Shown: one piece after another, positions 9,981 through 64,000 of the stretch
How the letters are laid out: the number at the start of each line of letters is the position of its first letter
Position numbering within the stretch: position 1 is the first letter of the stretch
DNA from: Thermoanaerobaculia bacterium
GTDB taxonomy: Bacteria; Acidobacteriota; Thermoanaerobaculia; Multivoradales; SZUA-115
Assembly (NCBI GenBank): GCA_046331405.1
Contig: JAXLQX010000001.1
Coordinates: 576,471 to 640,470 of the forward strand
Length of the DNA: 64,000 nt
Reading direction: 5' to 3'
Notes under the pieces: model-generated
The model's database searches: none
What the model was told of the DNA's origin: nothing
The model's input: only the letters and a program-made list of their open reading frames with translations
Translations under genes and position numbers: made by a program

Positions 9981-10001
9981 ACGCGAAGGAGGAGCCCAGC
10001 C

Positions 10002-12608
<2,607 letters not shown>

Positions 12609-29557: not shown

Positions 29558-29900
29558 GTCGGCTCCTTTCCCCTCCTGTGCTCGGAAGGCCGGTCCCGTT
29601 TCGAGCCTCCCTGAGATTCTCTCGACTTCGCCGTCGGAGAGCACCCGATCGGCTCTCCAGGTGGGAGAAGTCCTCCACGGCGGGAACCTCGGCCGGCCGC
29701 TGTGCCGGCGCAGAACTCTCTCACTCAGCGAGCCACTGTGACTCCTAAATGCAGCCGAGGAGATTTGCGGGACAAGGAACGGACCGGGCGATTCGAGCGA
29801 AGGCCGCCGTGAAATCTCGCATTAATCAGGAAGGTCTTTAGTTTGGCGAGCGCGCCAGGGTTCGAGTTGCCCCTTCGTTTCGTGAGCTATACTTTGGACA

Positions 29901-35960: not shown

Positions 35961-36680
35961 ATGGTATCGACCCTCCTCGCGCTGGCCCTGACCCTGCCGG
36001 CAACGGCTGCAGCCAACGACCTCACGGTGGACCAGATCCTCAGCCGGGCTGTCGAGGCCCGGGGTGGGGCAGCGCGCCTCAAGGAGCTGCGCTCGATCCG
36101 CACCCAGGGTGATTTTCTGGTTCAAGACGTCAAGCAGCCGTTCGTCCTCTACCGCCAGCGTCCCGACCATCTGCGCTCCGAGATCCAGACCCGCAAGGGC
36201 GCCGTCGTGCGGGTTTTCGCCGACGGCAAGGGCTGGGAGGTGAACCCCACCCAGGGCTCCACGGCGCCGCGGGTGCTGAGCGACGCCGAAGCGGCGGGTC
36301 TGCGCCGCCAAGCGGACTTCGATGGCCCTCTTCTCGATGCCAAAGCCAAGGGTCATCAGTGGCGGTTGGTGGGCCGCGAGAAGCTGGGCGACAAGGACGC
36401 CTATCACCTCGAGGTGAAGCTCGCGAGCGGCGACTCCGAGTCCTGGTGGGTGGATGCCGGGGACTTTCACGTGGTTAAGTCGGTTCAGAAGCAGACCGTG
36501 GCCGGCCAGCTCACCGACCTAGTCACTGAATACAGCGATTTTCGCGATGTCTCAGGAGTGAAGCTGCCGTTCCGTATCGACACCGAGCAAGTGGCACTCG
36601 GCCGCAAGACCACGCTCCTGGTGCAGTCGATCGCGGTCGATGCCGAGATGTCCGGGGATCTCTTCAGGATGCCCGGCTAA
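35961..36680 (+). CDS. Secreted LolA-like / outer-membrane-lipoprotein-sorting-like protein
   Basis: Start re-placed at ATG 35961, giving signal peptide MVSTLLALALTLPATAAA. Beta-rich, about 240 aa. Family assignment is tentative. Confidence 0.4.
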   Translation: MVSTLLALALTLPATAAANDLTVDQILSRAVEARGGAARLKELRSIRTQGDFLVQDVKQPFVLYRQRPDHLRSEIQTRKGAVVRVFADGKGWEVNPTQGSTAPRVLSDAEAAGLRRQADFDGPLLDAKAKGHQWRLVGREKLGDKDAYHLEVKLASGDSESWWVDAGDFHVVKSVQKQTVAGQLTDLVTEYSDFRDVSGVKLPFRIDTEQVALGRKTTLLVQSIAVDAEMSGDLFRMPG

Positions 36681-36711
36681 GCGTGGCCGTGCCCCATGTC
36701 GGAGCCATGCC

Positions 36712-42700: not shown

Positions 42701-43157
42701 GAGCCGAGGAACCGGCGACGGGAGCGAGCGAAGGGCTCAGCGCCGCGAGCCTCGCGCGCTTGCCGGCCGCCGAGCGAGAGGCCCGACTGCGGGAGTACCT
42801 GCGCGAGCTGGTGGCCCGGGTGCTCGGCCTGCCTGCGGCACGCCTCGAGGACGACCGGCCGGTGAACCGCCTGGGTATGGACTCGCTGATGGCCGTGGAG
42901 ACCCGCAATCGCGTGGAGATGGACCTCGGGGTGAGCGTTCCCGTGGTGACCCTGCTCCAGGGGGCCACGCTGCGGGAGCTCACGGAGCGGATCCAGGCGG
43001 AGCTGGGCGCGAGCCCTGCCGGCTCCGCCGCTCCGCCGCCGGCCGGCCCCGGCGAACCCGGCCACGAGGTGGTTGCCGAGATCGACCTCGAGGCGCTCTC
43101 CGAGGGCCAGGTCGACTCGCTCTTACGAGACCTCCTGGAGAGCCAGGGCAGCGCTCC

Positions 43158-43161
<4 letters not shown>
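36712..43161 (+). CDS. Type I polyketide synthase, single fully reducing module KS-AT-DH-ER-KR-ACP
   Basis: KS: DTACSSSLVALHQA, EAHGTGT, NIGHTEGAAG. AT: GQSLGEVAAAHVAG with the YASH specificity motif (methylmalonyl-type). DH: HPLLGWRLESALHAGTRFWQTE. ER: LIHSATGGVGLAA. KR: YLVTGGLGGLG. ACP: LGMDSLMAV. Start at MTRDRRSPQSDDVAIVGLSCRFP. ATGA overlap with the next gene. Confidence 0.9.
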
Positions 43162-48866
<5,705 letters not shown>

Positions 48867-48872
48867 GCCGCC

Positions 48873-50516
48873 ATGCGCCGAGGCCTGGACTGCGTCGTGA
48901 TCGGTTACAACGATCCACCTTTCGAACGCTATGCCGAACTCCTGCGGCAATACGGCGTGGATTCGCCGGCCTATCGCGACCTCAAGCTCTCCTCGGTGAC
49001 ACTCGACGGCAAGATGATGGGCTACGTCGACCTGCTCAACCGGAGTCTCGGCGAGGCCTGGGGCCGAGACCCACGGCTGCGCTCGGGGGACATCCCCTCC
49101 CTCGCGGCCGCCTATCTGGTGAGCTATCTGCGCCGGCACGGCGCGAGCGCCTGCTATATCAACCTTTTCCAGGAGGAGAAGAACCGGCTGGCAGAGCTGC
49201 TGGCGGAGGGGCCCCTCTGTGTGGCGATCACCACCACGCTCTATGTGCTGAATTTTCCGGTGAACGAGATGGTGGAGTTCATTCGCGCCATGGACCCCAC
49301 GGGCAAAGTGAAGATCGTGGTGGGCGGGCCGCTGGTGGCCAACCATGTCCGCAACTACCAGGGCGGCGAAGGCCTCGACGCGGCCCTCCAGGATCTCGGC
49401 GCCGACTACTACGTCTGCGAGGCCCAGGGCGAGGCGACGCTCGCGCAGCTGGTGCGCGCCCTGCGCGACGGCGGCGACCTCGCTGCGGTGCCGAACCTCT
49501 ACTACTTCGAGGCCGGCCGGCTGGTCTCGACCGCCCAGGCGCCGGAAAACAACTCCTTGGACGAGCATCACGTGGACTGGCGGCTGCTGGCCGACCACGG
49601 GCTGGGTGCCACGGTTCAGACCCGCACCGCCCGCAGCTGCGCCTTCAAGTGCTCGTTCTGCAATTATCCGGCGCGGGCCGGCAAGCTCACTCTTGCCAGC
49701 GTCGAGACCGTGCAGGCCGAGCTCGACGCCTTGCGCGAGGCGGGCGTGCGCAACGTGGTGTTCATCGACGACACCTTCAACGTGCCGTTGCCGCGCTTCA
49801 AGGCCCTCTGCCAGATGATGATCCGGCAGAATTATCCCTTCCGTTGGTTCTCCTACTTCCGCTGCAGCAACTCCGACGCCGAGGCGGTGGAGCTGATGGC
49901 GCGAAGCGGCTGCGGGGGTGTGTTCCTGGGCATCGAAAGCGGCTCGCCGACGATCCTCACCAACATGGACAAGGCGGCCACGATCGAAAAGTACCGCGAA
50001 GGCATCCGGATGCTGCGCGAGCACGGCATTCTGACCTTCGGTTCTTTCATCACCGGTTTTCCAGGCGAGACCGACGCCACCGTGGCCGAGACGGTCGACT
50101 TTCTCGAAACCACCGGGCTGGACTACTACCGCACGCAGCTGTGGTATTGCGAGCACGGCACGCCGATCGAGCGCCGCCGCGAGCTCCATGGCATCGAAGG
50201 GGAAGGTTTCGTCTGGTCCCACGCCACCATGGACAGCCTGGAAGCGATGGATCACATCGAGCGGATCTTCCTGTCGGTGACCGGTCCGATCTGGCTGCCG
50301 CAATGGTCGTACGATTTCTGGATCCTGCCATACCTGCTGGGAAAAGGTTTCCAACGCGATCAGCTGGACGGCTTCCATCGCCAGGCCCAGAAACTGATGG
50401 CGTTGGAGGTCGCCACTCTCTCCGAGCGAGACCGCCAGGGGCGCCGCGAGGCCTTGATGGCGAGCACGGTGGCGGCTGCCCGCACCTGGCAGGCAAGGAA
50501 CGAGGTGGCTCTATGA
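48873..50516 (+). CDS. Cobalamin-binding (class B) radical SAM enzyme
   Basis: N-terminal B12-binding Rossmann domain (VVIGYNDPPFERY...KIVVGGPL) and canonical TRTARSCAFKCSFCNYP (Cx3Cx2C). Starts 6 nt after the NRPS1 stop. ATGA overlap with the NRPS2 start. Confidence 0.8.
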   Translation: MRRGLDCVVIGYNDPPFERYAELLRQYGVDSPAYRDLKLSSVTLDGKMMGYVDLLNRSLGEAWGRDPRLRSGDIPSLAAAYLVSYLRRHGASACYINLFQEEKNRLAELLAEGPLCVAITTTLYVLNFPVNEMVEFIRAMDPTGKVKIVVGGPLVANHVRNYQGGEGLDAALQDLGADYYVCEAQGEATLAQLVRALRDGGDLAAVPNLYYFEAGRLVSTAQAPENNSLDEHHVDWRLLADHGLGATVQTRTARSCAFKCSFCNYPARAGKLTLASVETVQAELDALREAGVRNVVFIDDTFNVPLPRFKALCQMMIRQNYPFRWFSYFRCSNSDAEAVELMARSGCGGVFLGIESGSPTILTNMDKAATIEKYREGIRMLREHGILTFGSFITGFPGETDATVAETVDFLETTGLDYYRTQLWYCEHGTPIERRRELHGIEGEGFVWSHATMDSLEAMDHIERIFLSVTGPIWLPQWSYDFWILPYLLGKGFQRDQLDGFHRQAQKLMALEVATLSERDRQGRREALMASTVAAARTWQARNEVAL

Positions 50517-53500
50517 GTGGAACGCCCACCACCGGCTATCGTCTCTCGCCTCTCCAGCGCCGGCTCTGGCGCGTCCTCGAGCCAGGGGAGCAGGCCCTCA
50601 CCCGGCTGGAGCTGGAGGTTCGTGGCCGGTTGGAGCCGCAGACGCTGCTTGCCGCGGCGAGGCAGGTGGCGGCTCGCCACGAGGCCCTGCGCACGAGCTA
50701 CTCCCTGCCGGCGGGGTTCCGCGTGCCCTTCCAGGTGGTGGCGCCGGAGCCAGCCGTGGCGATGAACGAGCACGCGAGCTCCGTGCAGACGGGGCTCGGC
50801 TTGCGCTTCGAGGAGCTCGGGCCCGCGCACTTCCGGCTCGAGCTTTCCGCCCCGGCCCTCGGCTGCGATGCCGAGAGCCTGGCCACGGTGGCGGGCGAGC
50901 TGCTGCATCTGGCGGCCGGCGGCGGCGCCGAGGACCTCGCCCCGGAGCCCCTCCAGTACGTGGACTTCTCGGAGTGGCAGCACGAGCAGCTGGAGCAGGG
51001 GGACCCGGCGCTGGCCGTCGCCCGGAGCTTCTGGCAGGAAGTAGAGCTCGCGCCGCTCCAGGCCCTCAGCCTGCCGTTCGAGCTTGCCGCCCGCAGCGCC
51101 GGGGGAGGCAGGGCGAGCGAGCGGCTGCAACGCCGCCTCGAAGGCGAAGATCTGGCCGCGGCCCGAGAGCTCGAGGCCCGCCTGGGCTCGAGGCCGGGGG
51201 CGCTGGCCCTCGCCGTCTGGCTGATCTGGCTCGAGCAGCGCTGCCGGCTGGCGGCGCCGACCACGTCGATCCGGCTGGAGGGCCGCAACCTGCCCGAGCT
51301 GGAGGGGGCAGTAGGCCTCTTCGCCCGCTGGCTGCCCCTGGTCCACCGCGCCCCGGAGAGCCTGCGCTTCGCCGAGCTGGTGAGCCGGGTCTCGAAGGCC
51401 CTGGGCGAGGCCGGGGGGCATCAGGGCGGCTTCGCCTGGCCGGAGACCGAGGGCGAGGAACCAGCTACGCCGCGGGTGGGCTTCGCCCGCCTCGGCCTGC
51501 CCGCCTTCTCCCTGCCGGGCCTCGAGGCCCGCGCCACAGGGCTCGAGAGCGCGCCAGAGGGCCAAGCGCTGGTGCTCGAGGTGCTGGAGAGCGACGAGGC
51601 CTGGCAGCTCGGCTTCCGGTTCGACCCGTCACGGCTGCTCCAAGAGGACGTGGCGATGGCCGCCGGCGAGTGGCTGGAGCTGCTCGGCCAGGGGCTCCGC
51701 CGGCCGGACACCCCGCTCGGCCGCCTTTCGCTGCTCGGCAGCGAGGCTCGCTCGAGCCTGCTCCAGAGCTGGCGCGGGGCAGGCCGCTCGGCCGAGCCCC
51801 GGGCGTCTCTGCCCGAGCAGATCTTCGCCGCGGCCCGTGAAGTGCCGGATCGCGTGGCGGTGGTCTTCGAGAGCGAGTTCTTGAGCTACGGTGCGCTCGC
51901 CCGTGGAGCCGAGGCTCTGGCCGCCCGGCTCGATGGGCAGGGCCCGGAGTCGGTGGTGGGGCTCTGCCTGGAGCGCTCGACCGAGCTCATGGCCGGCCTC
52001 CTGGGAATCTGGCGAGCCGGGGCTGCCTACTGCCCGATCGACCCGGCCCAGCCGCGCGAGCGCCTCCGCCGCCTGATGGAGGACCTCCGGGCCCCGGCGG
52101 TGGTGACTTCGGCCGAGCTCGCCCCCCGACTCGAAGCGGCCGGCGGGCGGCCGGTGGTGATCGGCGAGGTGAGCCCGAGCCCGGCGCCGCTTCGCAAGCT
52201 CGCTCCAGAGCCGAGCTCCCTCGCCTACGTGATCTTCACTTCGGGTTCCACGGGCCGGCCCAAGGGGGTGGCGGTGGAGCATCGCCAGCTCGCCCACTAC
52301 GTGGCCGCGGCCCGGGCCGCCCTCGACCTGCCCGCCGGGGCAAGCTACGCCTCGGTGTCCACCCTGGCCGCCGACCTCGGCAACACGGCGATCTTCCCGG
52401 CGCTGGCGAGCGGCGGCACCCTCCACCTGCTCTCGCTCGAGCGGGCGGCCGATGCCGAGGCGTTCACCGGCTACTTCCGGGAGCGGCCGGTCGAGGGCCT
52501 GAAGATCGTGCCCAGCCATCTCGAGGCCGTGCTCGAGGCGGACGCCACGGCGCCGCTGCCGTGGCGCCGCCTGGTGCTGGGCGGCGAAGCCTGCCGCCCC
52601 GAGTGGGCGGCGGCCCTGGCCGGGCGCATGGCCGGGGGGCGGGTGTTCAACCACTACGGCCCCACCGAGACCACCGTGGGCGCGCTCACCGACCCGGTCG
52701 GGCCTTCCCCGGGAGACTCCCGCCTGCGCGCCTGGCCCCTCGGCCGGCCGCTCGAGGGGATGCGTGCCTACCTGCTCGACCGGCGCGGCGAGCCCTTGCC
52801 GCTGTGGGCCCCCGGCGAACTCTTCCTGGCGGGAGACGGGGTGGCTCGCGGCTACCTGGGCCGGCCCGCCCAGACCGCCGAGCGCTTCCTGCCGGACCCG
52901 CTGAGCCCATCGCCCGGCGCTCGCCTCTACCGCACCGGCGACCTCGCCCGCCGCCTGCCGGACGGCCGCATCGAGTTTCTCGGCCGCAGCGACCACCAGG
53001 TGAAGTATCACGGCTTCCGCATCGAGCTGGCCGAGATCCGCGCCGCGCTGAACCAGCACCGGGCGGTGCGCAACAGCGCCATCCGTCTGCTCAAGGACGA
53101 CGCCGGACGCGACGTGCTGGTGGCCTACTACGTGGCGCGCGAGGAGCTGGACCCGGCGGAGCTGCGCACCTTCCTGGGGGAGCACATCCAGGAGGAGACT
53201 CTCCCCGGCTATTTCGTGCACCTGCGCCGGCTGCCCCTCACCCTCAACGGCAAGGTGAACCTCGAGGCCCTGCCGGAGCTCGCCGAGGTGCGCCAGAAAC
53301 TGGCCCGCCACTTCGTGGCTCCCACCACCGAGACCGAGAAAGCCCTGGCGGCGATCTGGGGCGAGCTCCTGGGCCTCAGCCGGGTGGGGGTGGAGGAGAG
53401 CTTCTTCGAGCTGGGCGGGCATTCGCTGCTGGCCACCCGAATGGCCTCCCGGATCCGCCGGGGCTTCGGCGTGGTGCTGCCGCTGCGGGCCCTCTTCGAG

Positions 53501-53647
53501 GCGCCCACCATCGCTCTGCTCGCCCGTCGGGTGGAAGCGGAGCGCGGCACCGCCGCCCCGGCCGAGGTGGTCCTGGTGGCCGAGAGCCTGGACATCGAAG
53601 CCCAGCTCGCCGAGCTCGCCGGGGGCAAACCGGAGGAGGTCGTTTGA
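50513..53647 (+). CDS. NRPS subunit 2: degenerate C-like domain (no HHxxxDG) - A - PCP
   Basis: N-terminus YRLSPLQRRLW...HEALRTSYS is C-like, but the catalytic motif position reads SAPALGCDAES (no His). A domain LAYVIFTSGSTGRPKGV, NHYGPTETTV, YRTGDLA, KYHGFRIELAEIR. PCP FFELGGHSLLATRM. TTGA overlap with the next gene. Confidence 0.85.
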   Translation: MSGTPTTGYRLSPLQRRLWRVLEPGEQALTRLELEVRGRLEPQTLLAAARQVAARHEALRTSYSLPAGFRVPFQVVAPEPAVAMNEHASSVQTGLGLRFEELGPAHFRLELSAPALGCDAESLATVAGELLHLAAGGGAEDLAPEPLQYVDFSEWQHEQLEQGDPALAVARSFWQEVELAPLQALSLPFELAARSAGGGRASERLQRRLEGEDLAAARELEARLGSRPGALALAVWLIWLEQRCRLAAPTTSIRLEGRNLPELEGAVGLFARWLPLVHRAPESLRFAELVSRVSKALGEAGGHQGGFAWPETEGEEPATPRVGFARLGLPAFSLPGLEARATGLESAPEGQALVLEVLESDEAWQLGFRFDPSRLLQEDVAMAAGEWLELLGQGLRRPDTPLGRLSLLGSEARSSLLQSWRGAGRSAEPRASLPEQIFAAAREVPDRVAVVFESEFLSYGALARGAEALAARLDGQGPESVVGLCLERSTELMAGLLGIWRAGAAYCPIDPAQPRERLRRLMEDLRAPAVVTSAELAPRLEAAGGRPVVIGEVSPSPAPLRKLAPEPSSLAYVIFTSGSTGRPKGVAVEHRQLAHYVAAARAALDLPAGASYASVSTLAADLGNTAIFPALASGGTLHLLSLERAADAEAFTGYFRERPVEGLKIVPSHLEAVLEADATAPLPWRRLVLGGEACRPEWAAALAGRMAGGRVFNHYGPTETTVGALTDPVGPSPGDSRLRAWPLGRPLEGMRAYLLDRRGEPLPLWAPGELFLAGDGVARGYLGRPAQTAERFLPDPLSPSPGARLYRTGDLARRLPDGRIEFLGRSDHQVKYHGFRIELAEIRAALNQHRAVRNSAIRLLKDDAGRDVLVAYYVAREELDPAELRTFLGEHIQEETLPGYFVHLRRLPLTLNGKVNLEALPELAEVRQKLARHFVAPTTETEKALAAIWGELLGLSRVGVEESFFELGGHSLLATRMASRIRRGFGVVLPLRALFEAPTIALLARRVEAERGTAAPAEVVLVAESLDIEAQLAELAGGKPEEVV

Positions 53648-56600
53648 GCCTGGAGGGCGCAAGCTCCCTCGAGCGACGGCTCGCCGCGTTGACGCCGCCA
53701 CAGCGCGCGGCTCTCGCCGAGCGCAACCCGCTCTCCTTCGCCCAGGAGCGGATGTGGTTTCTCGACCAGCTCTTCGGTGGCAGCGCCTTCTACCACGGCG
53801 GCGCCGCCCTCTGCCTTCACGGCGAGCTCGAGGTGGCTGCGCTCGCCGCCGCCCTCTCCGAGCTCGCCCGCCGGCACCACGTTCTCCGTTCCGTGTTCCC
53901 GGCGCTCGACGGCGTGCCGGCCCAGCTGGTGCTGCCGGCGGCGGCAGTGGCCCTGCCGGTGGTGGACCTCGCAGCCCTCGCCCCGCTGGATCGTGAGCGG
54001 GCGGCCGCGGCGCTGGCCGCCCACGAGGTGGCCCGCCCCTGCCGGCTGGATCAAGGCCCCGTCTGGCGCCGCCTGCTGCTGCGATTGGCGACACGAGAGC
54101 ACCGGCTGATCGCCACTCTCCACCACATCGCGGCCGACCGCTGGTCCCTGGCCATCCTGGCCCGAGAGCTGGGCGAGCTCTACGCCGCCCGGCTCGCCGG
54201 CCGGCCGGCGGAGCTGCCTTCTCTCCCCGTGCAGTACGGCGACTTCGCCCGCTGGCAGCGTCGCCTGCCTGCCGAGGCGTTCGCGGGGGACCTCGCCTAC
54301 TGGCGAAGCCAGCTCGCCGCCCTGCCGCCGCCCCTCGAGCTGCCGGTGGACCACCCCCGGCCGGCCCGTCCCGGCCTGCGCGGCCGCCGCCACCACCACC
54401 ACCTGGCGGCTGGCCTCGAAGGACGCCTGCAGAGCGTGGCCCGGCGCGAGGGAGCCACGCCATTCATGCTGGTGCTCGCGGCCCTGGCCGCACTGCTGGC
54501 GCGCTGGACGGGCAGCCAGGACGTGCTGCTGGGAAGCCCCCTGGGGGCTCGGGAGCGAGAGGAATTCGAGCCGCTGATCGGCCTCTTCCTCAACACCCTG
54601 CCGCTGCGGCTGCGGCCCGGGCGGGGCCTCAGCTTCCGCCAGCTCCTGGCCGAGGCCGGGCAGGTGGCCCTCGAGGCCCAGGACCACGCTGCCCTTCCCT
54701 TCGAGAAGATCGTCGAGGCCGTCCAGCCGGAGCGCCAGCTCGATCGCAATCCGCTCTTCCAGGTTCTCTTCGCTTACCAGAACGTGCCGCGAGAGCGGTT
54801 GGCTCTGGGCAGCCTCGAGGTGGAGCTGGCGGAAGTGGAGAGGCAGAGCGCCCTCTTCGATCTCTCGCTCTCGTTCGAGGAGGAGGCGGAGGGGCTGAGC
54901 CTCGGGGTGGATTACAGCCGGGACCTCTTCGACGCCACCACCGTGGCGCGGCTGGCCCGGCACCTGGAGCGGCTGCTCACGGCCGCCCTCGAGAACCCGG
55001 AGGAGCGGCTCGAAGCGCTGCCCTGGTTGGCCGCAGCCGAGGAGCACCAGCTGCTCCGGGAGTGGAGCGACACCGCGGTTGCCGGCGATCCGCCCTCCCC
55101 GTTCGAGCTCTTCAGCCTCCAGGTTGCGGCACGGCCGGAGGCGAGCGCCGTTGCCTGCGACGGCGAGGTGCTCAGCTACGGCGAGCTCCACCGCCGGGTC
55201 CGCCGCCTGGCGGCCGCCCTCGAGGGGCAGGGTGTGGGCCCGGGCTCGCGGCTGGGGCTCTATCTCGAGCGCTCGCCCGAGCAGCTCCAGGCCCTGCTGG
55301 CCGCCCTCTGCCAGCGCGCCGCCTACGTACCCCTCGACCCGGCCTTCCCGGCGGAGCGGCTGCGTTTCATGGCCGAGGATGCCGGCCTCGCTGCGATCCT
55401 GGTGGCCGAGCGCGCGGCGGCCCCGCCCGAGTTCGCCGGCAGGTTGCTGGCTCTGGGCGAGCTCGAAGCCCCGGCCGAGGGCCCGGGCGCGGCGCCGGGC
55501 GGCGACTGGCCGGCCTACCTGATCTACACCTCCGGCTCCACCGGGCGGCCGAAAGGCGTGGTGGTACCGGCCTCGGCGGTGAGCAACTTCCTGCTCTCGA
55601 TGGCCGAACGGCCGGGCCTCTCTGCCTGCGAGCGACTGGTGGCGATCACCACGCTCTCCTTCGACATCGCCGTCCTGGAGCTGCTGCTGCCGCTGGTGGT
55701 GGGCGCCCAGGTGGTGCTCGCCCGGCGGGCGACGGCGAGCGACCCTCTGCGCTTGGCCGGGCTCCTGGCCGAGCAGGCGGCCAACGCCCTCCAGGCCACG
55801 CCGGCGACCTGGCGGGCCTTGCTCGAGAGCGGCTGGCAGCCGCCCGCGGGGCTGGCCCTGCTCTGCGGCGGCGAGTCCCTGCCGCTCGAGCTGGCGGAGC
55901 GGCTTTGCCAGGGGGAGAGCTGGCTGTGGAACCTCTACGGCCCCACCGAGACCACCGTGTGGTCCACGCTCGAGCGCTGGCAGCGGGGCGAGCCGAGCGT
56001 TGCCGCGGGCCGGCCGATCGCCAACACCGGGGCCTTTGTGCTGGACCGCGGCGGCCGGCCGCTGCCCGTGGGCGCCCCGGGCGAGCTCGCGCTCGGCGGC
56101 CGCGGCGTGAGCTGGGGCTACAGCGGCCGGCCGACGGCCACCGCCGAGCGTTTCCGGCCGGACCCCTTCGCCGATCGGCCGGGGCAGCGCCTCTACCACA
56201 CCGGGGATCTGGTGCGCCGGGGCCCGGATGGGCGCCTCGAATGGCTCGGCCGGCTGGACCATCAGGTCAAGCTGCGGGGTTTCCGCATCGAATTGGGCGA
56301 GGTGGAGGCGGCGCTCGCGAGCCACCCAGGAGTGGCCCAGGCCGTGGCGCTGGTGATCGGGCCGGAGCCGGCCGCGCTGGTGGGGGTGGTTCGGCCTCGC
56401 CCCGAACAAAGCCCGGCCGGCGCGGCTCTCTTGGCGCATCTCGGCCAACGCCTGCCGGGCTACATGGTGCCGTCGCAGATCGTCCTGGTAGACCCGCTGC
56501 CGCTCACTCCCAACGGCAAAGTGGACCGCCGGGCCCTGGGCGAGCAGGTGGCGACCCTGCGGCGGGGCGCGGCGCCGGAGGAAGGGCCCTCCGGCTCGCA

Positions 56601-59600
56601 GCTCGCCCAGCTGCTGGCGGCGATCTGGGCGGAAGTCCTGGGCCGGGAAGAAGTGGGCGAGCACGAGGACTTCTTCGCCCTCGGCGGACATTCGCTGTTG
56701 GCGGTTCGGCTGGTCGCCCGGCTGCGGGCCACCGTGGCTCCCGGGGCCGAGCTGCGCACCCTGTTCGACCACCCCACTCCCGCGAGTTTCGCCCTGGCGC
56801 TGCCGGCGAGCTCTGGCGAAGTACAACCTCTGGCCCCGATTCCCCGCCTCGAGCGCGGCGGCTTGCTGCCTCTCTCTTCGGCCCAGCAGCGCCTGTGGTT
56901 CCAGGACCAGCTCGAGGGGGAGCTCTCGGCGCTCGCCTTGCCAGCGCCGTTGCGGCTCTCGGGGCCGCTCGACCCGCGCCGAATGTCGACGGCGCTGGGG
57001 GCCCTTGTGGCCCGCCATGAGCTGCTGCGCACCCGCTTCCCGGTCGAGGCCGGGCGAGTGTGGGCGGAGATCACCCCCGCCGGGCCCCTGGCCTTGCCGG
57101 AGGTGGACCTCTCGGGCCTGCCTGCGGCTCGGCGGCCTGCCGAGGGCTCCCGTCTCCTCGCCGTCGACCTGCGAAGGCGCTTCCCGCTCGCAAGCTCGCC
57201 CCCGCTGCGCTGCGCGCTGCTGCGCCTGTCGGCGGCCGAGCACTGGCTGCAGCTCACGCTTCATCACATCGCCGGTGATCTCGGCTCCCTCGCGGTGCTG
57301 CTCCGGGAGCTCTCGGTGCTTTACCGGCAAGGGCAGGAGGCGCTTGCCCCGCTCGAGCTTCAACATGTCGATTTCGCCGCCTGGCAGCGGGGCGTCCTGG
57401 CCGGGCCCGGGCGCGAGGCGGAGCTGGCCTGGTGGCGGAGCACCCTGGAAGACCTGCCGCCGAGCTTCGAGCTGCCGGCCGACCGGCCCCGCCTGCCCGG
57501 CCAGGAGCCGCGAGGCGCCCGGGCGTCCTTCGCGCTCGCTCCCGGGCTGGTGCAGGCGCTGAGGCGCCAGGGCCGAGCCCTGGCGCTCACTCCGTTCATG
57601 CAGTTGGCCACGGGCCTCGCGCTGCTGCTCGGCCGCCTCGGCCGCAGCCGGGATCTGGCCCTGGCGACGCCGGTCGCCGGCCGGGACCGGCCCGAGCTCG
57701 CGGAGATGATCGGCCCGTTGCTCAACACGGTGGCGATCCGGCTGAGCCTCGCAGCCAACCCCACGGTGGCCGAGGCGCTGGCCATCGTGCGCGCTCAGGT
57801 GCTGGGGGCCCTGGCCCACCAGGAGCTGCCCTTCGACGAAGTCGTGACTTCCCTCGGCCTTGCCCGAGGCGGCGGCTCGCCGCCCTGGCTGGCCGCCCTG
57901 CTCGCGGTGCAGAACCTCGCCCTGCCGGCCCTCGACTTCGGCGCGCTCGAGGCCGAGCCGCTCGAGGTGGAAAAGCAAGCCGTGCAGTTCGAGTTGGTGG
58001 CGTTCTTCGCCGAGCGCCAGGGCGGCCTGGCCGGCGGCTTCAACTACCGCAGCGATCTCTTCGACCGCACCACCATCGAGCGCTGGCGAGGTTGGCTCGA
58101 GCGCCTGCTCGAGGGGGTCGCGACCCGGCCGGAGGCGCGGGCCTGGGACCTGCCCTGGTGGAGCCCGGCCGAGCACCAGCAGCTGCTCTGCGAATGGAGC
58201 GAGAGCAGGCGACTGCCCGAGGCGGGCCCCGAGGAGGGGCCCTGGTGCCTCTTCGCCGCCGCCTGCCGGCGGGCCCCGGAACGAGTAGGGGTGGTTTTCG
58301 AGGGCGAACACTGGAGCTATGGGGCGCTCGCCGCCCGGGCCGCCGCCGGCGCCGCCGAGCTCGAGGCCTTCGGAGTGGGGCCGGAGCAGCTGGTGGCGAT
58401 CTGCCTGGAACGCTCGGTGGCGCTCGTGGTCGCCGTGCTCTCGGTGCTCGGGGCCGGGGCGGCCTACGTGCCGCTCGATCCCGCCTGGCCCCGGGAGCGG
58501 CTGGCGAGCCTGCTCACGGAGCTGGGCCATCCCTGGGTGCTGAGCGGTCCCCTCGAGCGGGAGCTCCTGCCGGCCAACGCCCGGGCGCTCGAGCCGGCCC
58601 GAGTGCCAGCTGAGCCTGTGCCGGCCCCGCTGCCCGACGCCCGGCAGCTGGCCTACTTGATCTACACCTCCGGCTCCACCGGCCGGCCCAAGGGCGTGAT
58701 GATCTCCCGCGGCAGCGCTGCCCACCTGGCCCGCTCCCAGGTGGTGGCCTTCGGCCTGGGCGAGGGCGAGCGGGTGCTGCAGTTCTCGGCGATCACCTTC
58801 GACGCTTCGGTTTCGGAGCTGCTCACGGCGTGGGCGGTGGCGGGAACTCTGGTCCTCGGTCGCCGCGAGCAGCTGGCGGATTCGGGGGAGCTCGCCGGGC
58901 TCGCCAGCCGCGAGCGGATCGACCTCGTGACGCTGCCGCCTTCGCTTCTGGCCCGGCTCGCTGCCGGCTCGTTGCCGGCGCAGACCACCCTGGTGGTGGC
59001 CGGCGAGGCCACTTCGGCCGAGTTGGTGGACCGCTGGGCCCCGGGGCGTCGAATGCTCAACGCCTACGGCCCGACCGAGTGCACCGTGGGCGCCACCGTG
59101 GGGCTCTGCGAGGTCGGCGCTGGCGCGCCGCCGGCCCTGGGCCGCCCCACCCGGGGTTACCGGCTGCACGTGGTGGACCCCGGGGGGCAGCTCACGCCCC
59201 CGGGAGCCCCGGGGGAGCTCTGGATCGGCGGCGAGGGAGTGGCCCGGGGCTATTGGCGCCGGCCCGGGGAAACGGCGGCGCGCTTCGTGCCCGACCCCTG
59301 GAGCGGCGAGCCGGGCGCTCGCCTCTACCGCACCGGTGACCTCGGGCGCCAGCTTGCCGATGGCCGCTTGCGCTATCTCGGGCGCATCGATGCCCAGCTC
59401 AAGGTGCACGGTGTGCGCATCGAGCCGGCCGAGATCGAAGCCGCGTTCCTGGCCCATGGGGCCGTGCGCGAGGCGGCCGTGCAGCTCGCCTGGCGCGGCG
59501 CCGAGCGGGTGCTCGTGGCCTATCTGGGGGTGGGGGCGAGTGGGGTGAGCGAAAGCGCGCTGCGCGCCCACCTGGCGGAGCGCCTGCCGCGCACTCTGAT

Positions 59601-62427
59601 GCCCGCGGCGCTGGTGCTGCTCGAGCGGCTGCCCCTCTCCTCTCACGGCAAGGTCGATCGGCGGGCTCTCGAAGAGCTGCCGGTCGAGGTCGCGGCTTCG
59701 AGCTCTGCGGGCCCGCCCCGCGACGCCCTGGAGAGACGCCTGGCCGAGTTGTGGCAGGACATTCTCGGCCGCGGGGCCGGCACGGTGGGCGTGGGCGACG
59801 ATTTCTTCGCCCTGGGCGGCAGCTCGATCGATGCGGCGATCCTGGTCAACCGCCTGCAGGAGGAGCTCGGCGAGCACGTCTACGTGGTGGCGCTGTTCGA
59901 CGCCCCCACCCTCGGAGATCTCGGCGTCTGGCTCAAGCGCCACTACCCGGCCGCCGTGGAGCGTCGCTTCGGGGTGAGCGGCGGGCAGTCGGCCCCCGAG
60001 GGCGCGCAGCGGGATGGCCGGCCGCTCGGCGCGGCGGATCTCGCCGCGCTGGCCGGCCGGGTGGAGCCCCCGGCGGCGGCCCGGAGAGCTCGCCAGCGCC
60101 GGCCGGCGATCTTCGTGCTCTCGCCGCCGCGTTCGGGCTCCACGCTGCTGCGCGTGCTGCTCGGCGGGCATTCGCAGCTGTTCGCGCCGCCCGAGCTGGA
60201 CCTGTTCTCCTTCGCCACCCTGGGCGAGCGCCGCCGGGCCTTCTCCGGGCGTTTCGCCTTCTGGCGCGAGGGCCTGATCCGCGCCGTCATGGAGCTTGCC
60301 GGAAGCGACGCCCCGGCCGCCGAGCGGCTGGTCGAGGGCTTCGAAGAGCGCGACGCCGAGGTTTCCGAGGTGCTCGGCTGGTTGCTCGACGCCTGCGCTC
60401 CTCGCCTGTTGGTGGACAAGACGCCGGCCTACGCCCTCCACCCCGCGATCCTCGAGCGCCTGGAAGACGAGGTGCCGGGCGCCCACTACATCCACCTGCT
60501 CCGCCACCCGCAGGCGGTGATCGCCTCCTTCGTCGAAGCCCATCTCGATCAGCTCTTCTTCCGCCCCGAGCACCCCTACAGCGGGCCCGAGCTGGCGGAG
60601 CTGGTGTGGCAGCTCAGCCAGCGCAACATCCTGGAATTCCAGCGCCGCGTGGCCCCGGAGCGCTGGCATCCGGTGCGCTTCGAAGAGCTGGTGGCGGCGC
60701 CGGCCGAGGTGATGGCGAGGCTCTGCGCGGGCCTCGGCCTCAAGCTCGAGCCGGCCATGCTCGAGCCCTACGGCGATGGGCGCGGCCGGATGACCGACGG
60801 CATCCATCCGCTGTCCAAGATGCTGGGCGACGTGAAGTTCCACCAGCACTCGGCGATCGACCCGGCGGCGGCCCACCGCTGGCAGCAACAGCAAGGCCTC
60901 CGGCCCCTCGCCCCCGGGACCGTGGCCCTGGCCGAGCGGCTCGGCTACCCGGCCCCCGAAGCGCCGCTGTCCTTCGCCCAGCAGCGCTTCTGGCTGGCCC
61001 ACCGGCTGGACGCCTCCGGCTACGCCTACAACATCCCGGCCGCCGTGGAGCTCGAGGGCGAGCTCGATGCCCGGGCCCTCGCCGACGCCCTCGGCGACCT
61101 CGTTGCTCGGCATCAGGTGCTGCGCAGCTTCTTCCCGGTGGTCGAGGGCAGGCCCGTGGCCCGCTTCCGGCTGCCGGCCGGAGAGCCCCTGCCAAGGCTG
61201 GATCTCGAGGGCCTGGGCGAGGGCGCCGCCGCCGAGGCCGCCCGGCTGGGCGCGCGGGAGGCGAAGCGGCCGTTCGCCCTCGGGACCGGGCCGGTGGTGC
61301 GGATGCGCTTGCTCCGCCTCGGGCCGGCCCGTCACCGCCTGCTCTTCACTGCCCACCACATCGCGAGCGACGCCTGGTCCTCGGCGATCGTGCTTGCCGA
61401 GCTCGACACCCTCTACTCGGCGCGGCTCGCCGGCCGCCGGGCCGAGCTGCCCGAGCTCGCCGTCCAGTACGCGGACTTCGCCCGCCACCAGCGCGAGGAG
61501 CCGCCGGCCGGGCGGCAAGCGGCACTCGCCTACTGGCAGCGTGAGCTGGCACCGCCCTGGCCGCGCCTCGCCCTACCGGTGGACCGGCCCGAGGCTGCGG
61601 CCCTCGCCACCGCCGGCGCTCGCCTCACCATTGCCGTGCCGCCGCCGGTCGCCACGCGGCTGGTTGCCCTCGCCCGCGAGGAGAGCGCCACGCCGTTCGC
61701 CGCCCTGCTCGCAGCCTTCGGCCTGGTACTCGGGCACCTCGGCGGGCAGACGGATCTGGTGGTGGGCACCAACTTCGCCGAGCGAGGCCGGCCGGAGCTC
61801 GAGGGGCTGATCGGCTGCTTCGTCAACCAGCTCGCGCTGCGCCTCTCGCTCGCCGGCGAGCCCAGCCTGCGCGAGCTGCTGCGCCGTGCCCGGCGCACGC
61901 TGGTGGAGGCCCAGCGCCACGGCGAGGTTCCCCTGGAGCAGGTGCTGGAGCAGCTCGGCCTGGGCCCCCGCGCCGGCCAGGGGCAAGGCGAGGAGATCTT
62001 CGAGGCCAAGTTCGAGCTGCTCAACGTGCCGCGCGAGCGGCCGCGGCTGGGCCCGCTCGAGGTGCATCCGCTGGTCGAAGACCGCGGTGTGGTGCGCTAC
62101 CTCCTCCACCTGCTGCTCGAGGTGGGCGACGACGGCGGATTCCACGGCCTCTTCCAATACGACGGCGGGCGCCTCGAGGCCGCCACGGCGCGCGAGTGGA
62201 GCTGCCTTTTCGTCGATGCCTGCCGGCTGCTCGCCGAGCGGCCGGAGCTCGCTTTCGCTGCCGCGAAGGCCGAGCTCGCCTCCGCGGCCGAGCTGCGGCA
62301 GCAGGAGTCGGGGCGATTGCAGCGCCAGGCCAACGCCCGGCGCCTCGGCCAGAGCCGGCGCCCTGCCGCCGTCGCCAACCTCAGCACCCCCCAGGAGCCT
62401 TTCGACGATGAGCGACCCAACGCCTGA
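53644..62427 (+). CDS. NRPS subunit 3: C-A-PCP-C-A-PCP-sulfotransferase-C
   Basis: C HHIAADRWS. A1 AYLIYTSGSTGRPKGVVV, YHTGDL. PCP FFALGGHSLLAVRL. C LHHIAGDLGS. A2 AYLIYTSGSTGRPKGVMI, NAYGPTECTV, YRTGDLG. PCP FFALGGSSIDAAIL. Sulfotransferase PAPS motifs IFVLSPPRSGSTLL (5'-PSB) and LLRHPQAVIAS (3'-PB RxxxxxxS). Terminal C HHIASDAWS. TTG start overlapping the NRPS2 stop. Confidence 0.85.
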   Translation: MSLEGASSLERRLAALTPPQRAALAERNPLSFAQERMWFLDQLFGGSAFYHGGAALCLHGELEVAALAAALSELARRHHVLRSVFPALDGVPAQLVLPAAAVALPVVDLAALAPLDRERAAAALAAHEVARPCRLDQGPVWRRLLLRLATREHRLIATLHHIAADRWSLAILARELGELYAARLAGRPAELPSLPVQYGDFARWQRRLPAEAFAGDLAYWRSQLAALPPPLELPVDHPRPARPGLRGRRHHHHLAAGLEGRLQSVARREGATPFMLVLAALAALLARWTGSQDVLLGSPLGAREREEFEPLIGLFLNTLPLRLRPGRGLSFRQLLAEAGQVALEAQDHAALPFEKIVEAVQPERQLDRNPLFQVLFAYQNVPRERLALGSLEVELAEVERQSALFDLSLSFEEEAEGLSLGVDYSRDLFDATTVARLARHLERLLTAALENPEERLEALPWLAAAEEHQLLREWSDTAVAGDPPSPFELFSLQVAARPEASAVACDGEVLSYGELHRRVRRLAAALEGQGVGPGSRLGLYLERSPEQLQALLAALCQRAAYVPLDPAFPAERLRFMAEDAGLAAILVAERAAAPPEFAGRLLALGELEAPAEGPGAAPGGDWPAYLIYTSGSTGRPKGVVVPASAVSNFLLSMAERPGLSACERLVAITTLSFDIAVLELLLPLVVGAQVVLARRATASDPLRLAGLLAEQAANALQATPATWRALLESGWQPPAGLALLCGGESLPLELAERLCQGESWLWNLYGPTETTVWSTLERWQRGEPSVAAGRPIANTGAFVLDRGGRPLPVGAPGELALGGRGVSWGYSGRPTATAERFRPDPFADRPGQRLYHTGDLVRRGPDGRLEWLGRLDHQVKLRGFRIELGEVEAALASHPGVAQAVALVIGPEPAALVGVVRPRPEQSPAGAALLAHLGQRLPGYMVPSQIVLVDPLPLTPNGKVDRRALGEQVATLRRGAAPEEGPSGSQLAQLLAAIWAEVLGREEVGEHEDFFALGGHSLLAVRLVARLRATVAPGAELRTLFDHPTPASFALALPASSGEVQPLAPIPRLERGGLLPLSSAQQRLWFQDQLEGELSALALPAPLRLSGPLDPRRMSTALGALVARHELLRTRFPVEAGRVWAEITPAGPLALPEVDLSGLPAARRPAEGSRLLAVDLRRRFPLASSPPLRCALLRLSAAEHWLQLTLHHIAGDLGSLAVLLRELSVLYRQGQEALAPLELQHVDFAAWQRGVLAGPGREAELAWWRSTLEDLPPSFELPADRPRLPGQEPRGARASFALAPGLVQALRRQGRALALTPFMQLATGLALLLGRLGRSRDLALATPVAGRDRPELAEMIGPLLNTVAIRLSLAANPTVAEALAIVRAQVLGALAHQELPFDEVVTSLGLARGGGSPPWLAALLAVQNLALPALDFGALEAEPLEVEKQAVQFELVAFFAERQGGLAGGFNYRSDLFDRTTIERWRGWLERLLEGVATRPEARAWDLPWWSPAEHQQLLCEWSESRRLPEAGPEEGPWCLFAAACRRAPERVGVVFEGEHWSYGALAARAAAGAAELEAFGVGPEQLVAICLERSVALVVAVLSVLGAGAAYVPLDPAWPRERLASLLTELGHPWVLSGPLERELLPANARALEPARVPAEPVPAPLPDARQLAYLIYTSGSTGRPKGVMISRGSAAHLARSQVVAFGLGEGERVLQFSAITFDASVSELLTAWAVAGTLVLGRREQLADSGELAGLASRERIDLVTLPPSLLARLAAGSLPAQTTLVVAGEATSAELVDRWAPGRRMLNAYGPTECTVGATVGLCEVGAGAPPALGRPTRGYRLHVVDPGGQLTPPGAPGELWIGGEGVARGYWRRPGETAARFVPDPWSGEPGARLYRTGDLGRQLADGRLRYLGRIDAQLKVHGVRIEPAEIEAAFLAHGAVREAAVQLAWRGAERVLVAYLGVGASGVSESALRAHLAERLPRTLMPAALVLLERLPLSSHGKVDRRALEELPVEVAASSSAGPPRDALERRLAELWQDILGRGAGTVGVGDDFFALGGSSIDAAILVNRLQEELGEHVYVVALFDAPTLGDLGVWLKRHYPAAVERRFGVSGGQSAPEGAQRDGRPLGAADLAALAGRVEPPAAARRARQRRPAIFVLSPPRSGSTLLRVLLGGHSQLFAPPELDLFSFATLGERRRAFSGRFAFWREGLIRAVMELAGSDAPAAERLVEGFEERDAEVSEVLGWLLDACAPRLLVDKTPAYALHPAILERLEDEVPGAHYIHLLRHPQAVIASFVEAHLDQLFFRPEHPYSGPELAELVWQLSQRNILEFQRRVAPERWHPVRFEELVAAPAEVMARLCAGLGLKLEPAMLEPYGDGRGRMTDGIHPLSKMLGDVKFHQHSAIDPAAAHRWQQQQGLRPLAPGTVALAERLGYPAPEAPLSFAQQRFWLAHRLDASGYAYNIPAAVELEGELDARALADALGDLVARHQVLRSFFPVVEGRPVARFRLPAGEPLPRLDLEGLGEGAAAEAARLGAREAKRPFALGTGPVVRMRLLRLGPARHRLLFTAHHIASDAWSSAIVLAELDTLYSARLAGRRAELPELAVQYADFARHQREEPPAGRQAALAYWQRELAPPWPRLALPVDRPEAAALATAGARLTIAVPPPVATRLVALAREESATPFAALLAAFGLVLGHLGGQTDLVVGTNFAERGRPELEGLIGCFVNQLALRLSLAGEPSLRELLRRARRTLVEAQRHGEVPLEQVLEQLGLGPRAGQGQGEEIFEAKFELLNVPRERPRLGPLEVHPLVEDRGVVRYLLHLLLEVGDDGGFHGLFQYDGGRLEAATAREWSCLFVDACRLLAERPELAFAAAKAELASAAELRQQESGRLQRQANARRLGQSRRPAAVANLSTPQEPFDDERPNA

Positions 62428-62527
62428 GCCCCGCGTGCCCGGAGTGGACCTGGTGACCTGGATCGCCGGGCCCCGGCGGATCCCCGTCGAGATGGGCCAG
62501 GCCGCCAGCGGGGAGCCCCGGCCGTGA
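62408..62527 (+). CDS. Possible 38-aa bridging ORF between NRPS3 and NRPS4 (hypothetical)
   Basis: ATG at 62408 overlaps the NRPS3 stop in the +1 frame. Encodes MSDPTPEPRVPGVDLVTWIAGPRRIPVEMGQAASGEPRP. Its TGA overlaps the GTG start of the next NRPS gene (CCGTGAGCC). Confidence 0.2.
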   Translation: MSDPTPEPRVPGVDLVTWIAGPRRIPVEMGQAASGEPRP

Positions 62528-64000
62528 GCCAGGCCGGCTTCCGCCTCTCGCCGGAGCAGCGGGCCGCCTGGGCGGCGGCCGAGCAGGGCCGGGCCCTGCC
62601 CTGGGTGGCCCGGGTGGAGTTCGCCGGCGAGCTCGAGCCGCAGGCCTGTCGCCGGGCCCTCTCGGCTCTCGGCAGTCGACTCGAGATCCTGCGCACCGGC
62701 TTCGACTTCGCCCCCGGCCTCACCGTGCCTCTGCAGTGGGTGAAGGAGGAGGCGCGACCGAAGCTCGCCTGGCTGGACCTCACCGCGCTCGCGGCGGGGG
62801 ACCGCGACCGTGCGGCGAGCGAGGTCGCCCGCGAGGCGGCTGCCGCCGGCCGGCCCTGGCAGCAGGGAGGGGTGGAGCTGCTGGTGGCCAAGGCCGGCCC
62901 GGCCGCCGGCTGGCTGCTCTGGAAGAGCTCGCCCCTGGTGGCGGGGCCACAGAGCCTGTGGTTGCTCGCCTCCGCCTGGGCGGAAGAGGTGGCTGGCTCG
63001 CCTGGAGCCGACACGCTCCAGTACGCCGACCTCGCCGAGTGGCAGAACAGTCTGCTCGAAGGTGAGGAAACCGCCCAGGAGCGGCTCTACTGGCGATCCT
63101 GGGCCGGGAGCTCCCGGCCAGAAGGAACCTGGGCGTCGCCGCCGGAGGGAGAGCGGCCGCCGCAGCCCGCCGTGGCTCGGCGCCGGCTGCCGGGCGAGGT
63201 GATCCACAGCCTGGCCGCGGCCGGCAACCTCGAGGGGGAGCTCGCGGCCTGCTGGTGGCTCCAGGCGGCGGCCTGGCAGGCCGAGGGCGAGCCGGCTCTG
63301 GGCCTGCTCGCGAACGGGCGCTCCTACGAGGATCTCGAACGCGCCGTGGGGCCTCTCGCCCGCCACCTGCCCCTGCGCCTGCCGGCGCCACAGGCGGCCG
63401 AGGGCTTCCGTGGCTGGGCCGGGAGGGTGGGCCAGGCGCTGGCAGCGGATCGCGAGTGGCAGGAGTACTGCCCTCTGTTTCCGGAGCGAGTGCCGTACCT
63501 CACGGCCTTCGAGCATCGAGCCGTGGGCGAGCGGTGGGCTCGAGGCGGCCTGGCGCTGCGCCTGCTGGGCTTCGAGAGGGTGGCCGGTGCACCCGGCGTG
63601 GCCCTGACTCTGGCCGTGGAGAGCAGCCCGGAAGGCGTCGAGGCCCGCCTGGCATTCGACCGCGCTCGGCTGGCGCAGCGTGAAGCCGAGGCCCTGCTCG
63701 AGCGTTGGGCGGAGCTCGTCGCACGGGTGGCGGCGCAGCCGGCGGCAACGGTGGCGAGCTTCGAGCGGCTGAGCCGGGCAGACCAGGCCTGGCTCGATAC
63801 CGGCTGGAACGGCGAGCAAGGCCTGCTGCCGGACTTTGACACCGTGCTCGAGCCGATTCTCCGGGAGGCGCGCCGGGCCAGCGAGCGGGTCGCCCTGGTG
63901 GGGGGCGAGGAGCATTGGTCCTGGGGCTACCTCGAAAGCTACTCGGCCGGCCTCGCCGGCCGCTTGCGCGCCCTGGGGGCCGGGCCGGACCGCCTGGTGG
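62524..64000 (+). CDS. NRPS subunit 4 (5' part): degenerate C-like domain, then the start of an A domain; continues beyond the window
   Basis: Not in the ORF track because no stop occurs in the window. GTG start VSQAGFRLSPEQRAAW...LEILRTGFDF. The C-motif position reads SSPLVAGPQSLWLL (no His). The window ends in RVALVGGEEHWSWGYLESYSAGLAGRLRALGAG (A-domain A1/A2 region). Confidence 0.7.
   Translation, partial: MSQAGFRLSPEQRAAWAAAEQGRALPWVARVEFAGELEPQACRRALSALGSRLEILRTGFDFAPGLTVPLQWVKEEARPKLAWLDLTALAAGDRDRAASEVAREAAAAGRPWQQGGVELLVAKAGPAAGWLLWKSSPLVAGPQSLWLLASAWAEEVAGSPGADTLQYADLAEWQNSLLEGEETAQERLYWRSWAGSSRPEGTWASPPEGERPPQPAVARRRLPGEVIHSLAAAGNLEGELAACWWLQAAAWQAEGEPALGLLANGRSYEDLERAVGPLARHLPLRLPAPQAAEGFRGWAGRVGQALAADREWQEYCPLFPERVPYLTAFEHRAVGERWARGGLALRLLGFERVAGAPGVALTLAVESSPEGVEARLAFDRARLAQREAEALLERWAELVARVAAQPAATVASFERLSRADQAWLDTGWNGEQGLLPDFDTVLEPILREARRASERVALVGGEEHWSWGYLESYSAGLAGRLRALGAGPDRLV

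Follow-up and report, generated by a model that had tools for sequence, protein, structure and literature searches.

Background

The closest described counterpart of the nonribosomal peptide synthetase (NRPS) line analysed here is the cyanochelin B cluster on plasmid 2 of Leptolyngbya sp. NIES-3755, whose pathway makes beta-hydroxy-aspartate (PMC12628792). As read here from the sequence record, BAU16013 has the domain order C-A-PCP-C-A-PCP-C-TauD (condensation, adenylation, peptidyl carrier protein and TauD-family hydroxylase) and BAU16012 (CcsI, 1048 aa) the order I-A-PCP, where I is the interface domain; elsewhere in the record BAU16063 ends in C, BAU16062 is a stand-alone TauD and BAU16061 (CcsL) is I-A-PCP-E. 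CcsI follows the fused TauD and CcsL the stand-alone one, and both carry aspartate codes in their A domains. The locus studied here lies in a stretch of 64,000 nucleotides from a Thermoanaerobaculia metagenome-assembled genome (MAG; GCA_046331405.1, contig JAXLQX010000001.1, positions 576,471 to 640,470), referred to below as the window and numbered from its first letter. It contains a polyketide synthase (PKS)-NRPS line, two subunits of which, G4 and G6, begin with C-like domains (C*) that lack the HHxxxDG motif. Both C* domains are very probably I domains, which belong to the condensation superfamily but are non-catalytic, with a canonical junction in front of G4 and one that has no hydroxylase in front of G6.

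The comparison with cyanochelin bears mainly on G4. Like it, the cyanochelin I domains have a C fold without HHxxxDG (the motif being P[AS]LCAD), stand at the N-terminus of an I-A-PCP unit and precede an Asp A domain; as at the first junction of the window, the NRPS ahead of them closes with an intact C domain accompanied by a TauD-family hydroxylase. End to end, G4 and CcsI are 35.7% identical (612 bits). The window differs in that another gene, G3, is inserted at the first junction, and in that G6 has no adjacent hydroxylase and carries Gly at an otherwise invariant Asp. The hosts differ too, one being cyanobacterial and the other a Thermoanaerobaculia MAG.

'I (interface)' is listed among the C subtypes in NRPS Motif Finder, is attributed to Reitz et al. 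2019 (PNAS 116:19805) in the literature citing that work, as a domain of siderophore NRPSs that handle beta-hydroxy amino acids, and is now profiled in antiSMASH 8. The domain type has therefore been known since 2019 and is annotated automatically by current tools; G4 is a new member of it and G6 an atypical one. When first described, the I domain is said to have been proposed to bring the hydroxylase and the amino acid bound to the NRPS into position ahead of the hydroxylation step. The A domain of such a module activates the residue to be modified, usually Asp and less often His, Asn or a Gln-like one. A second inactive C fold, the X domain (teicoplanin Tcp12; PDB 4TX2, 4TX3, 6M7L), is one of the top matches both by sequence and by fold, and recruits tailoring oxygenases (cytochrome P450s) to the carrier-bound substrate in cis. 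It differs from the window domains in position and partner, since it follows the last PCP (C-A-PCP-X-TE) and works with a P450, whereas the window domains are N-terminal, stand before an A domain and have a TauD partner.

Organisation of the assembly line

The window is about 70% G+C, so that overlapping false frames crowd mechanical lists of open reading frames (ORFs). Genes were called from a frame plot of third-position GC (GC3) and from translations across the junctions, with domains taken from Pfam. G1 to G6 form a single collinear PKS-NRPS operon on the + strand. G1 (36640-43161) is a PKS with the order KS-AT-DH-ER-KR-ACP, G2 (43158-48866) is C-A-PCP-C-TauD, G3 (48873-50516) is a B12-binding radical SAM protein and G4 (50513-53647, 1044 aa) is C*-A-PCP; G5 (53644-62427) is C-A-PCP-C-A-PCP-sulfotransferase (ST)-C, and G6 (62524 to past 64000) is C*-A and is cut by the window end. 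Overlaps of 4 nt join G1 to G2, G3 to G4 (ATGA) and G4 to G5, and 6 nt separate G2 from G3. G5 and G6 share a frame, with a single TGA and 96 nt between them and GGGGAG ahead of the GTG start of G6.

A frameshift that had split or fused the subunits wrongly is excluded at the first junction, because positions 46758-54367 were recovered gap-free, at 99.86% identity, in three independent metagenome assemblies; the contigs on which a look-up located G3 are short and break off before G6. An exact look-up of G4 gave no match, while the exact G3 sequence is that of MFN7960158.1, from a Thermoanaerobaculia MAG. The closest relatives of the ST and I domains are likewise from Thermoanaerobaculia.

Loss of the catalytic motif

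An earlier note on this DNA had reported that two NRPS subunits, its NRPS2 (G4) and NRPS4 (G6), have C-like N-termini without the catalytic histidines, and this is borne out. The two domains, at 50513..51787 in G4 and 62524..63798 in G6 (both + strand), begin their ORFs and are followed by an A domain. Both are hit by Pfam Condensation (G4 85.6 bits, E 4e-24; G6 52.6 bits, E 4e-14), with scores far below those of intact C domains. They are nevertheless full length (about 425 aa) and align along the whole C domain. When all seven C-type domains of the window are aligned with MAFFT, the five others read HHIAADL, HHLVADG, HHIAADR, HHIAGDL and HHIASDA at the HHxxxD motif; the same columns read PALGCDA in G4 (50852-50872) and SPLVAGP in G6 (62929-62949), with no His-His pair in either. 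The strings that the note had quoted (LSPLQRRLW, ALRTSYS, SAPALGCDAES and SSPLVAGPQSLWLL) were all found in the sequence. As a separate observation, among the five catalytic C domains in G2 and G5 only one has the final Gly of HHxxxDG; the other four read HHIAADL, HHIAADR, HHIAGDL and HHIASDA.

What the note had made of these domains fared less evenly. Its statement that each follows a subunit ending in an intact C domain holds for G6, as G5 ends in C (HHIASDA) plus a 49-aa tail, but not for G4, as G2 ends in C-TauD and G3 intervenes. The suggestion of an inactive C fold acting as a structural or docking partner, similar to an X domain, agrees with the evidence, with the correction that the type is a named subtype rather than a novel one. 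The alternative offered there, a novel inactive starter, is contradicted by the position of both domains in mid-line elongation modules, for which a catalytic C would be supplied in trans by the preceding protein. Absent from that account was the partner that explains the first of the two cases, namely a TauD-family beta-hydroxylase domain closing G2, which goes with the Asp specificity of the A domain in G4.

Assignment to the interface domain family

The G6 domain was used to scan one genome per GTDB species and metagenome contigs, giving 160 loci with 203 C*-type domains; the domains of these loci were mapped with profiles built in this analysis. All 203 begin a new ORF, at a median of 12 residues from its start, and in all of them the next resolved domain is A. 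A TauD-family dioxygenase, either fused or adjacent to an intact upstream C domain, precedes 121 of them; 65 come directly after an intact C at the end of a protein, a further 16 stand where a contig breaks off, and the remaining one comes after another I-type hit. Asp codes predominate among the A domains of the family, which ranges over Cyanobacteria, Acidobacteriota, Binatota, Chloroflexota (Ktedonobacteria, Chloroflexia, Anaerolineae) and other phyla. In place of HHxxxDG its members have P[AS]LCAD, a motif derived here rather than taken from the literature, in which the Asp is present in 203 of 203. G4 retains the P, A, L and D of this motif, and G6 only the L and A.

Two hidden Markov models (HMMs) separate the domain types. 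The I-HMM was trained on 60 TauD-preceded domains, all from other organisms, and the catalytic-C HMM on 191 C domains; the resulting assignment rests on these profiles built here. G4 scores 217 bits with the I-HMM against 107 with the catalytic-C HMM, and G6 scores 211 against 85; the cyanochelin domains behave in the same way (CcsI 422 against 216, CcsL 482 against 178). The order is reversed for the five intact C domains of the window, which score 152-246 bits with the I-HMM and 393-515 with the catalytic-C HMM. In BLASTP searches the G6 domain matches family members at E values of about 1e-39. Searching for homologues of the G4 domain in a word index gave a single match, and the domain type is not modelled in NCBIfam.

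At 65 positions the family is conserved in at least 80% of members, and G4 holds 44 of these and G6 48. The retained I-specific residues include the Pro in LSPxQ, the Glu in AEW, a Trp, an invariant Leu-Pro and an Asp. In a neighbour-joining (NJ) tree that also holds six catalytic C domains, the 197 non-redundant I-type tips, with G4, G6, CcsI and CcsL among them, form a monophyletic group apart from those six. Taken together, the conserved positions, the I-specific residues and the monophyly argue for purifying selection on a distinct function. Structure is less discriminating: an AlphaFold 2 model of the G4 domain (pLDDT 69, pTM 0.63) matches C and X domains at TM-scores of 0.5-0.66, and with a model of this moderate quality Foldseek does not separate I, X and catalytic C domains. 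For annotation, the G4 and G6 domains should be labelled interface domains, rather than inactive or novel C domains.

The first junction

Judged from its sequence, the G2-G3-G4 junction is a canonical beta-hydroxy-aspartate split module with one peculiarity, G3. The second C domain of G2 (46443..47837, + strand; G2 aa 1107-1544 by Pfam Condensation) is intact according to the alignment, reading HHLVADG at 46881-46901. It is followed at the C-terminus of G2 by a TauD-family Fe(II)/2-oxoglutarate dioxygenase (47883..48863, + strand; Pfam TauD E 2e-46), which has the HxE...H triad and is the sole TauD in the window. This domain is 46% identical over 323 aa to the fused hydroxylase of BAU16013 and 35% identical to the stand-alone CcsK, and is predicted to be an aspartyl beta-hydroxylase. 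The A domain and PCP of G4 occupy 51803..53557 (+ strand), and the A-domain code, DLTKVGHVGK, is that of Asp. With the interface label, the G4 module is predicted to incorporate beta-hydroxy-aspartate.

On the preferred reading the line is split between C and A in both C*-headed modules, with the active C at the end of the preceding protein. G4 would load Asp onto its own PCP, and the terminal C-TauD didomain of G2 would dock on the I domain of G4, allowing TauD to hydroxylate Asp-S-PCP at C-beta. The second C domain of G2, acting in trans, would then condense the upstream chain onto the hydroxylated Asp. In this form the first junction adds little that is new to the field.

The peculiarity, G3 (48873..50516, + strand), is assigned by Pfam and by TIGR04479 (625 bits, cutoff 600) to the PhpK family of B12-binding radical SAM methyltransferases. 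It is translationally coupled between its two partners and occupies the slot that stand-alone TauD genes have in other clusters. C-methylation of a carrier-bound residue is one possibility for what it may do. On a separate point, the code of the first G2 A domain, DLYNMSLIWK, is Cys-like, yet the C domain paired with it is an ordinary one and not a heterocyclisation domain.

The second junction

At the second junction G5 contributes three features (all + strand). A CurM-type ST domain lies between its last PCP and its last C domain (60034..60843; Pfam Sulfotransfer_3; PDB 4gbm, the CurM ST, E 2e-67). The terminal C domain (60955..62277) is intact, with HHIASDA at 61354-61374, and would be the trans-acting C for the G6 module. 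It is followed by a Gln/Arg-rich tail of 49 aa (ASAAELRQQESGRLQRQANARRLGQSRRPAAV...) at 62278..62424, in which Lys, Arg and Gln (K+R+Q) make up a fraction of 0.38.

Tails of this composition recur in the family. The median K+R+Q fraction is 0.41 in the 65 tails (of about 35 aa) at C|I junctions, those where the I domain directly follows a C-ending protein, and 0.38 in 33 C-TauD linkers, against 0.19 in 160 C-A linkers in cis. A conserved Gln/Lys/Arg-rich tail of about 35 aa (e.g. ...NIQKLKHVKRK...) stands after the C domain wherever an interface domain opens the next protein, as at the C|I junctions of L010, L016, L048, L080 and other loci. The G5 tail resembles the L048 tails and can be aligned with them by eye (…RRLGQSRRPAAV… with …RSLGQARRKAVQA). 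The tail is a candidate docking element.

Precedents for an I domain without a hydroxylase also exist: around 56 of the 65 C|I junctions (about 28% of the family), some 10 kb of sequence holds no TauD on either strand. In the uncharacterised clusters L010, L048 and L118, for example, the I domain heads its protein as in G6 and follows an intact C domain with a Gln/Lys/Arg-rich tail of about 35 aa and no TauD. Two of these, L048 (itself from Thermoanaerobaculia) and L118 (from a soil metagenome), resemble the window further, since a single line there contains modules of both the TauD|I and the C|I kind. On the NJ tree, parsimony suggests that the TauD association is ancestral, with at least 19 changes of context. 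From the TauD-less precedents and the Gln/Arg-rich tail of G5, the second junction is read as a C-TauD|I junction that may have lost its hydroxylase and retained its docking apparatus. The I domain of G6 would then most likely be only a docking or scaffolding partner for the trans-acting C domain of G5.

In some of the loci the assembly line is broken up, with stand-alone C proteins alternating with I-A-PCP proteins. The order in L158 (Ga0299906_10000118) is C | TauD-TauD | I-A-PCP | C | I-A-PCP | C | I. Another such case is Candidatus Binatus soli UBA7539 (L010), with FAAL, PKS and a 521-aa stand-alone C protein, followed by I-A-PCP-C-A-PCP-TE. The TauD-less group is dominated by the A-domain code DARHMGVID, to which no substrate is assigned.

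Points that weigh against the assignment

Some observations count against this account of the two junctions. There is no TauD upstream of G6, the only one in the window being that of G2, and its residue 141 (62944-62946) is Gly where all 203 family members, and catalytic C domains as well, have Asp. Only about 70 aa of its A domain are visible before the window ends, too little for a substrate code to be read. At the first junction, G3 splits the usual adjacency of C-TauD and I, and the linker from C to TauD in G2 is rich in Pro and Ser rather than in Gln and Lys. More generally, the identity of the G4 and G6 domains to the rest of the family is no higher than 25-30%, the NJ tree carries no support values, and no solved structure labelled as an interface domain was found among the PDB sequence and fold matches. 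The I-HMM was built from loci that the scan with G6 had brought in, so that it is biased in favour of G6; this bias does not touch G4 or the cyanochelin anchor. Finally, docking by I domains is itself a proposal, and to our knowledge a physical docking role has never been demonstrated biochemically.

G6 also departs from the hydroxylase-less C|I clusters that it otherwise resembles, in that these keep the invariant Asp, lack an ST before the C domain and mostly have the code DARHMGVID. No relative of G6 above 33% identity was found in the genome scan, the metagenome scan or the protein search. A change of one base (GAC or GAT to GGC or GGT) would suffice to give its Asp-to-Gly replacement.

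Alternative explanations

The alternative that survives best, although it is considered unlikely, is that the I domain of G6 serves a hydroxylase that is not adjacent to it, either the TauD of G2 acting once more in trans or a stand-alone TauD past the window, so that the G6 residue would be beta-hydroxylated after all. The window stops 1.5 kb into G6, before any downstream genes, and in nine loci one I module lacks its own TauD although the same cluster has one at another place; stand-alone TauD genes between C-ending and I-starting proteins, such as CcsK, are also common. Against it stand the 56 of 65 junctions with no TauD nearby on either strand and the finding that in all TauD-associated cases the TauD is immediately upstream of the I domain and never downstream. 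The loss of the invariant Asp in G6 also argues against it.

It is decidedly improbable that the two I domains recruit other tailoring enzymes, with G4 presenting Asp-S-PCP to G3 and G6 working with the CurM-like ST of G5. The coupling of G3 between G2 and G4 and the position of the ST just upstream of the G5/G6 C|I junction speak for this idea, as does L110, where a strong G3 homologue (9894-11573, 714 bits) has a C-ending NRPS protein on one side and, on the other, a protein that opens with a truncated C domain, of which only the C-terminal half is there, plus an A domain. Across the 160 related loci, however, a G3 homologue is present in only two and the ST in none, and the radical SAM gene of L140 (3325-4950) stands beside HPPD-like and aminotransferase genes instead of adjoining an I domain. 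The ST was rejected as an I-domain partner both on this distribution and because PCP-ST-C-A occurs in cis, without an I domain, in L166 and L167. CurM-type STs (CurM, OLS) act on the carrier protein immediately upstream, which also counts against a partnership with G6. In G5 the order is PCP-ST-C, and the ST follows an A domain with a Tyr-like code (DASTVAAVGK). This ST is of the 'activating' CurM type and may install either a sulfate ester or a leaving group for elimination. L166 and L167 are uncharacterised NRPSs; the majority of ST homologues, at about 430 aa, consist of ACP-ST alone.

That the C* domains are functionless relics of active C domains in decay is very improbable. In favour of decay, the catalytic motif is gone, the structural Asp of G6 is lost as well and the Pfam Condensation scores are weak; against this, the domains are full length, occur in many phyla, hold most of the 65 conserved positions and fall within a monophyletic group.

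The remaining suggestions, that the junctions are assembly or frameshift artefacts or that the domains are glycopeptide X domains or starter C domains, can practically be dismissed: G5 and G6 do share a frame with one TGA and 96 nt between them, and in a PDB sequence search G4 has the X domain of teicoplanin as its second-best match, but the three gap-free assemblies, the ORF starts of all 203 family members and the GGGGAG before the GTG of G6 contradict an artefact, while X domains sit after the last PCP and not before an A domain. The X domain was rejected because the window domains are N-terminal and precede A, no P450 is present among the Pfam-scanned ORFs of the window and the HMMs group the domains with I; a starter (lipo-initiation) C domain was rejected because HHxxxDG is absent and because G4 and G6 follow G1-G2 and G5, respectively, in a collinear PKS-NRPS line.

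A possible general role for interface domains

About a quarter of public I-type domains have no hydroxylase nearby, yet the upstream tail is conserved, which argues that the core job of the I domain would be docking between proteins where a module is split between C and A. It is tentatively suggested, as an idea that is plausible but on balance doubtful, that I domains are general adaptors through which a C domain on one protein serves the A-PCP of the next, the tail docking and the hydroxylase being optional and repeatedly lost; the G5|G6 junction would be an example. The window offers a natural pair for testing the docking idea, with one TauD-containing and one TauD-less junction in a single line. 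Should the adaptor reading be true, NRPS engineering would gain a natural, portable split-module connector.

Neighbouring genes

Upstream of the operon is a group of genes that may supply a precursor. An SbnB equivalog (32435-33445, + strand; TIGR03944, 386 bits) and an SbnA equivalog (34520-35575, - strand; TIGR03945, 407 bits) flank an ornithine-carbamoyltransferase-like gene (33471-34478, - strand), which scores below the cutoffs of its family. Their presence suggests that 2,3-diaminopropionate, possibly carbamoylated, is supplied to the assembly line. A MacB-type exporter is encoded at 29901-32390, and no TonB-dependent receptor or siderophore-uptake gene was found among the window ORFs scanned, so that a siderophore role is not established for the product.

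Two further B12-type radical SAM genes are present, at 27620-29644 (- strand) and 21630-23246 (+ strand), adjoining genes for the glycolytic enzymes PGK and GAPDH. One of the two matches TIGR03975, a C-methyltransferase model for the maturation of ribosomally synthesised and post-translationally modified peptides (RiPPs), at 518 bits.

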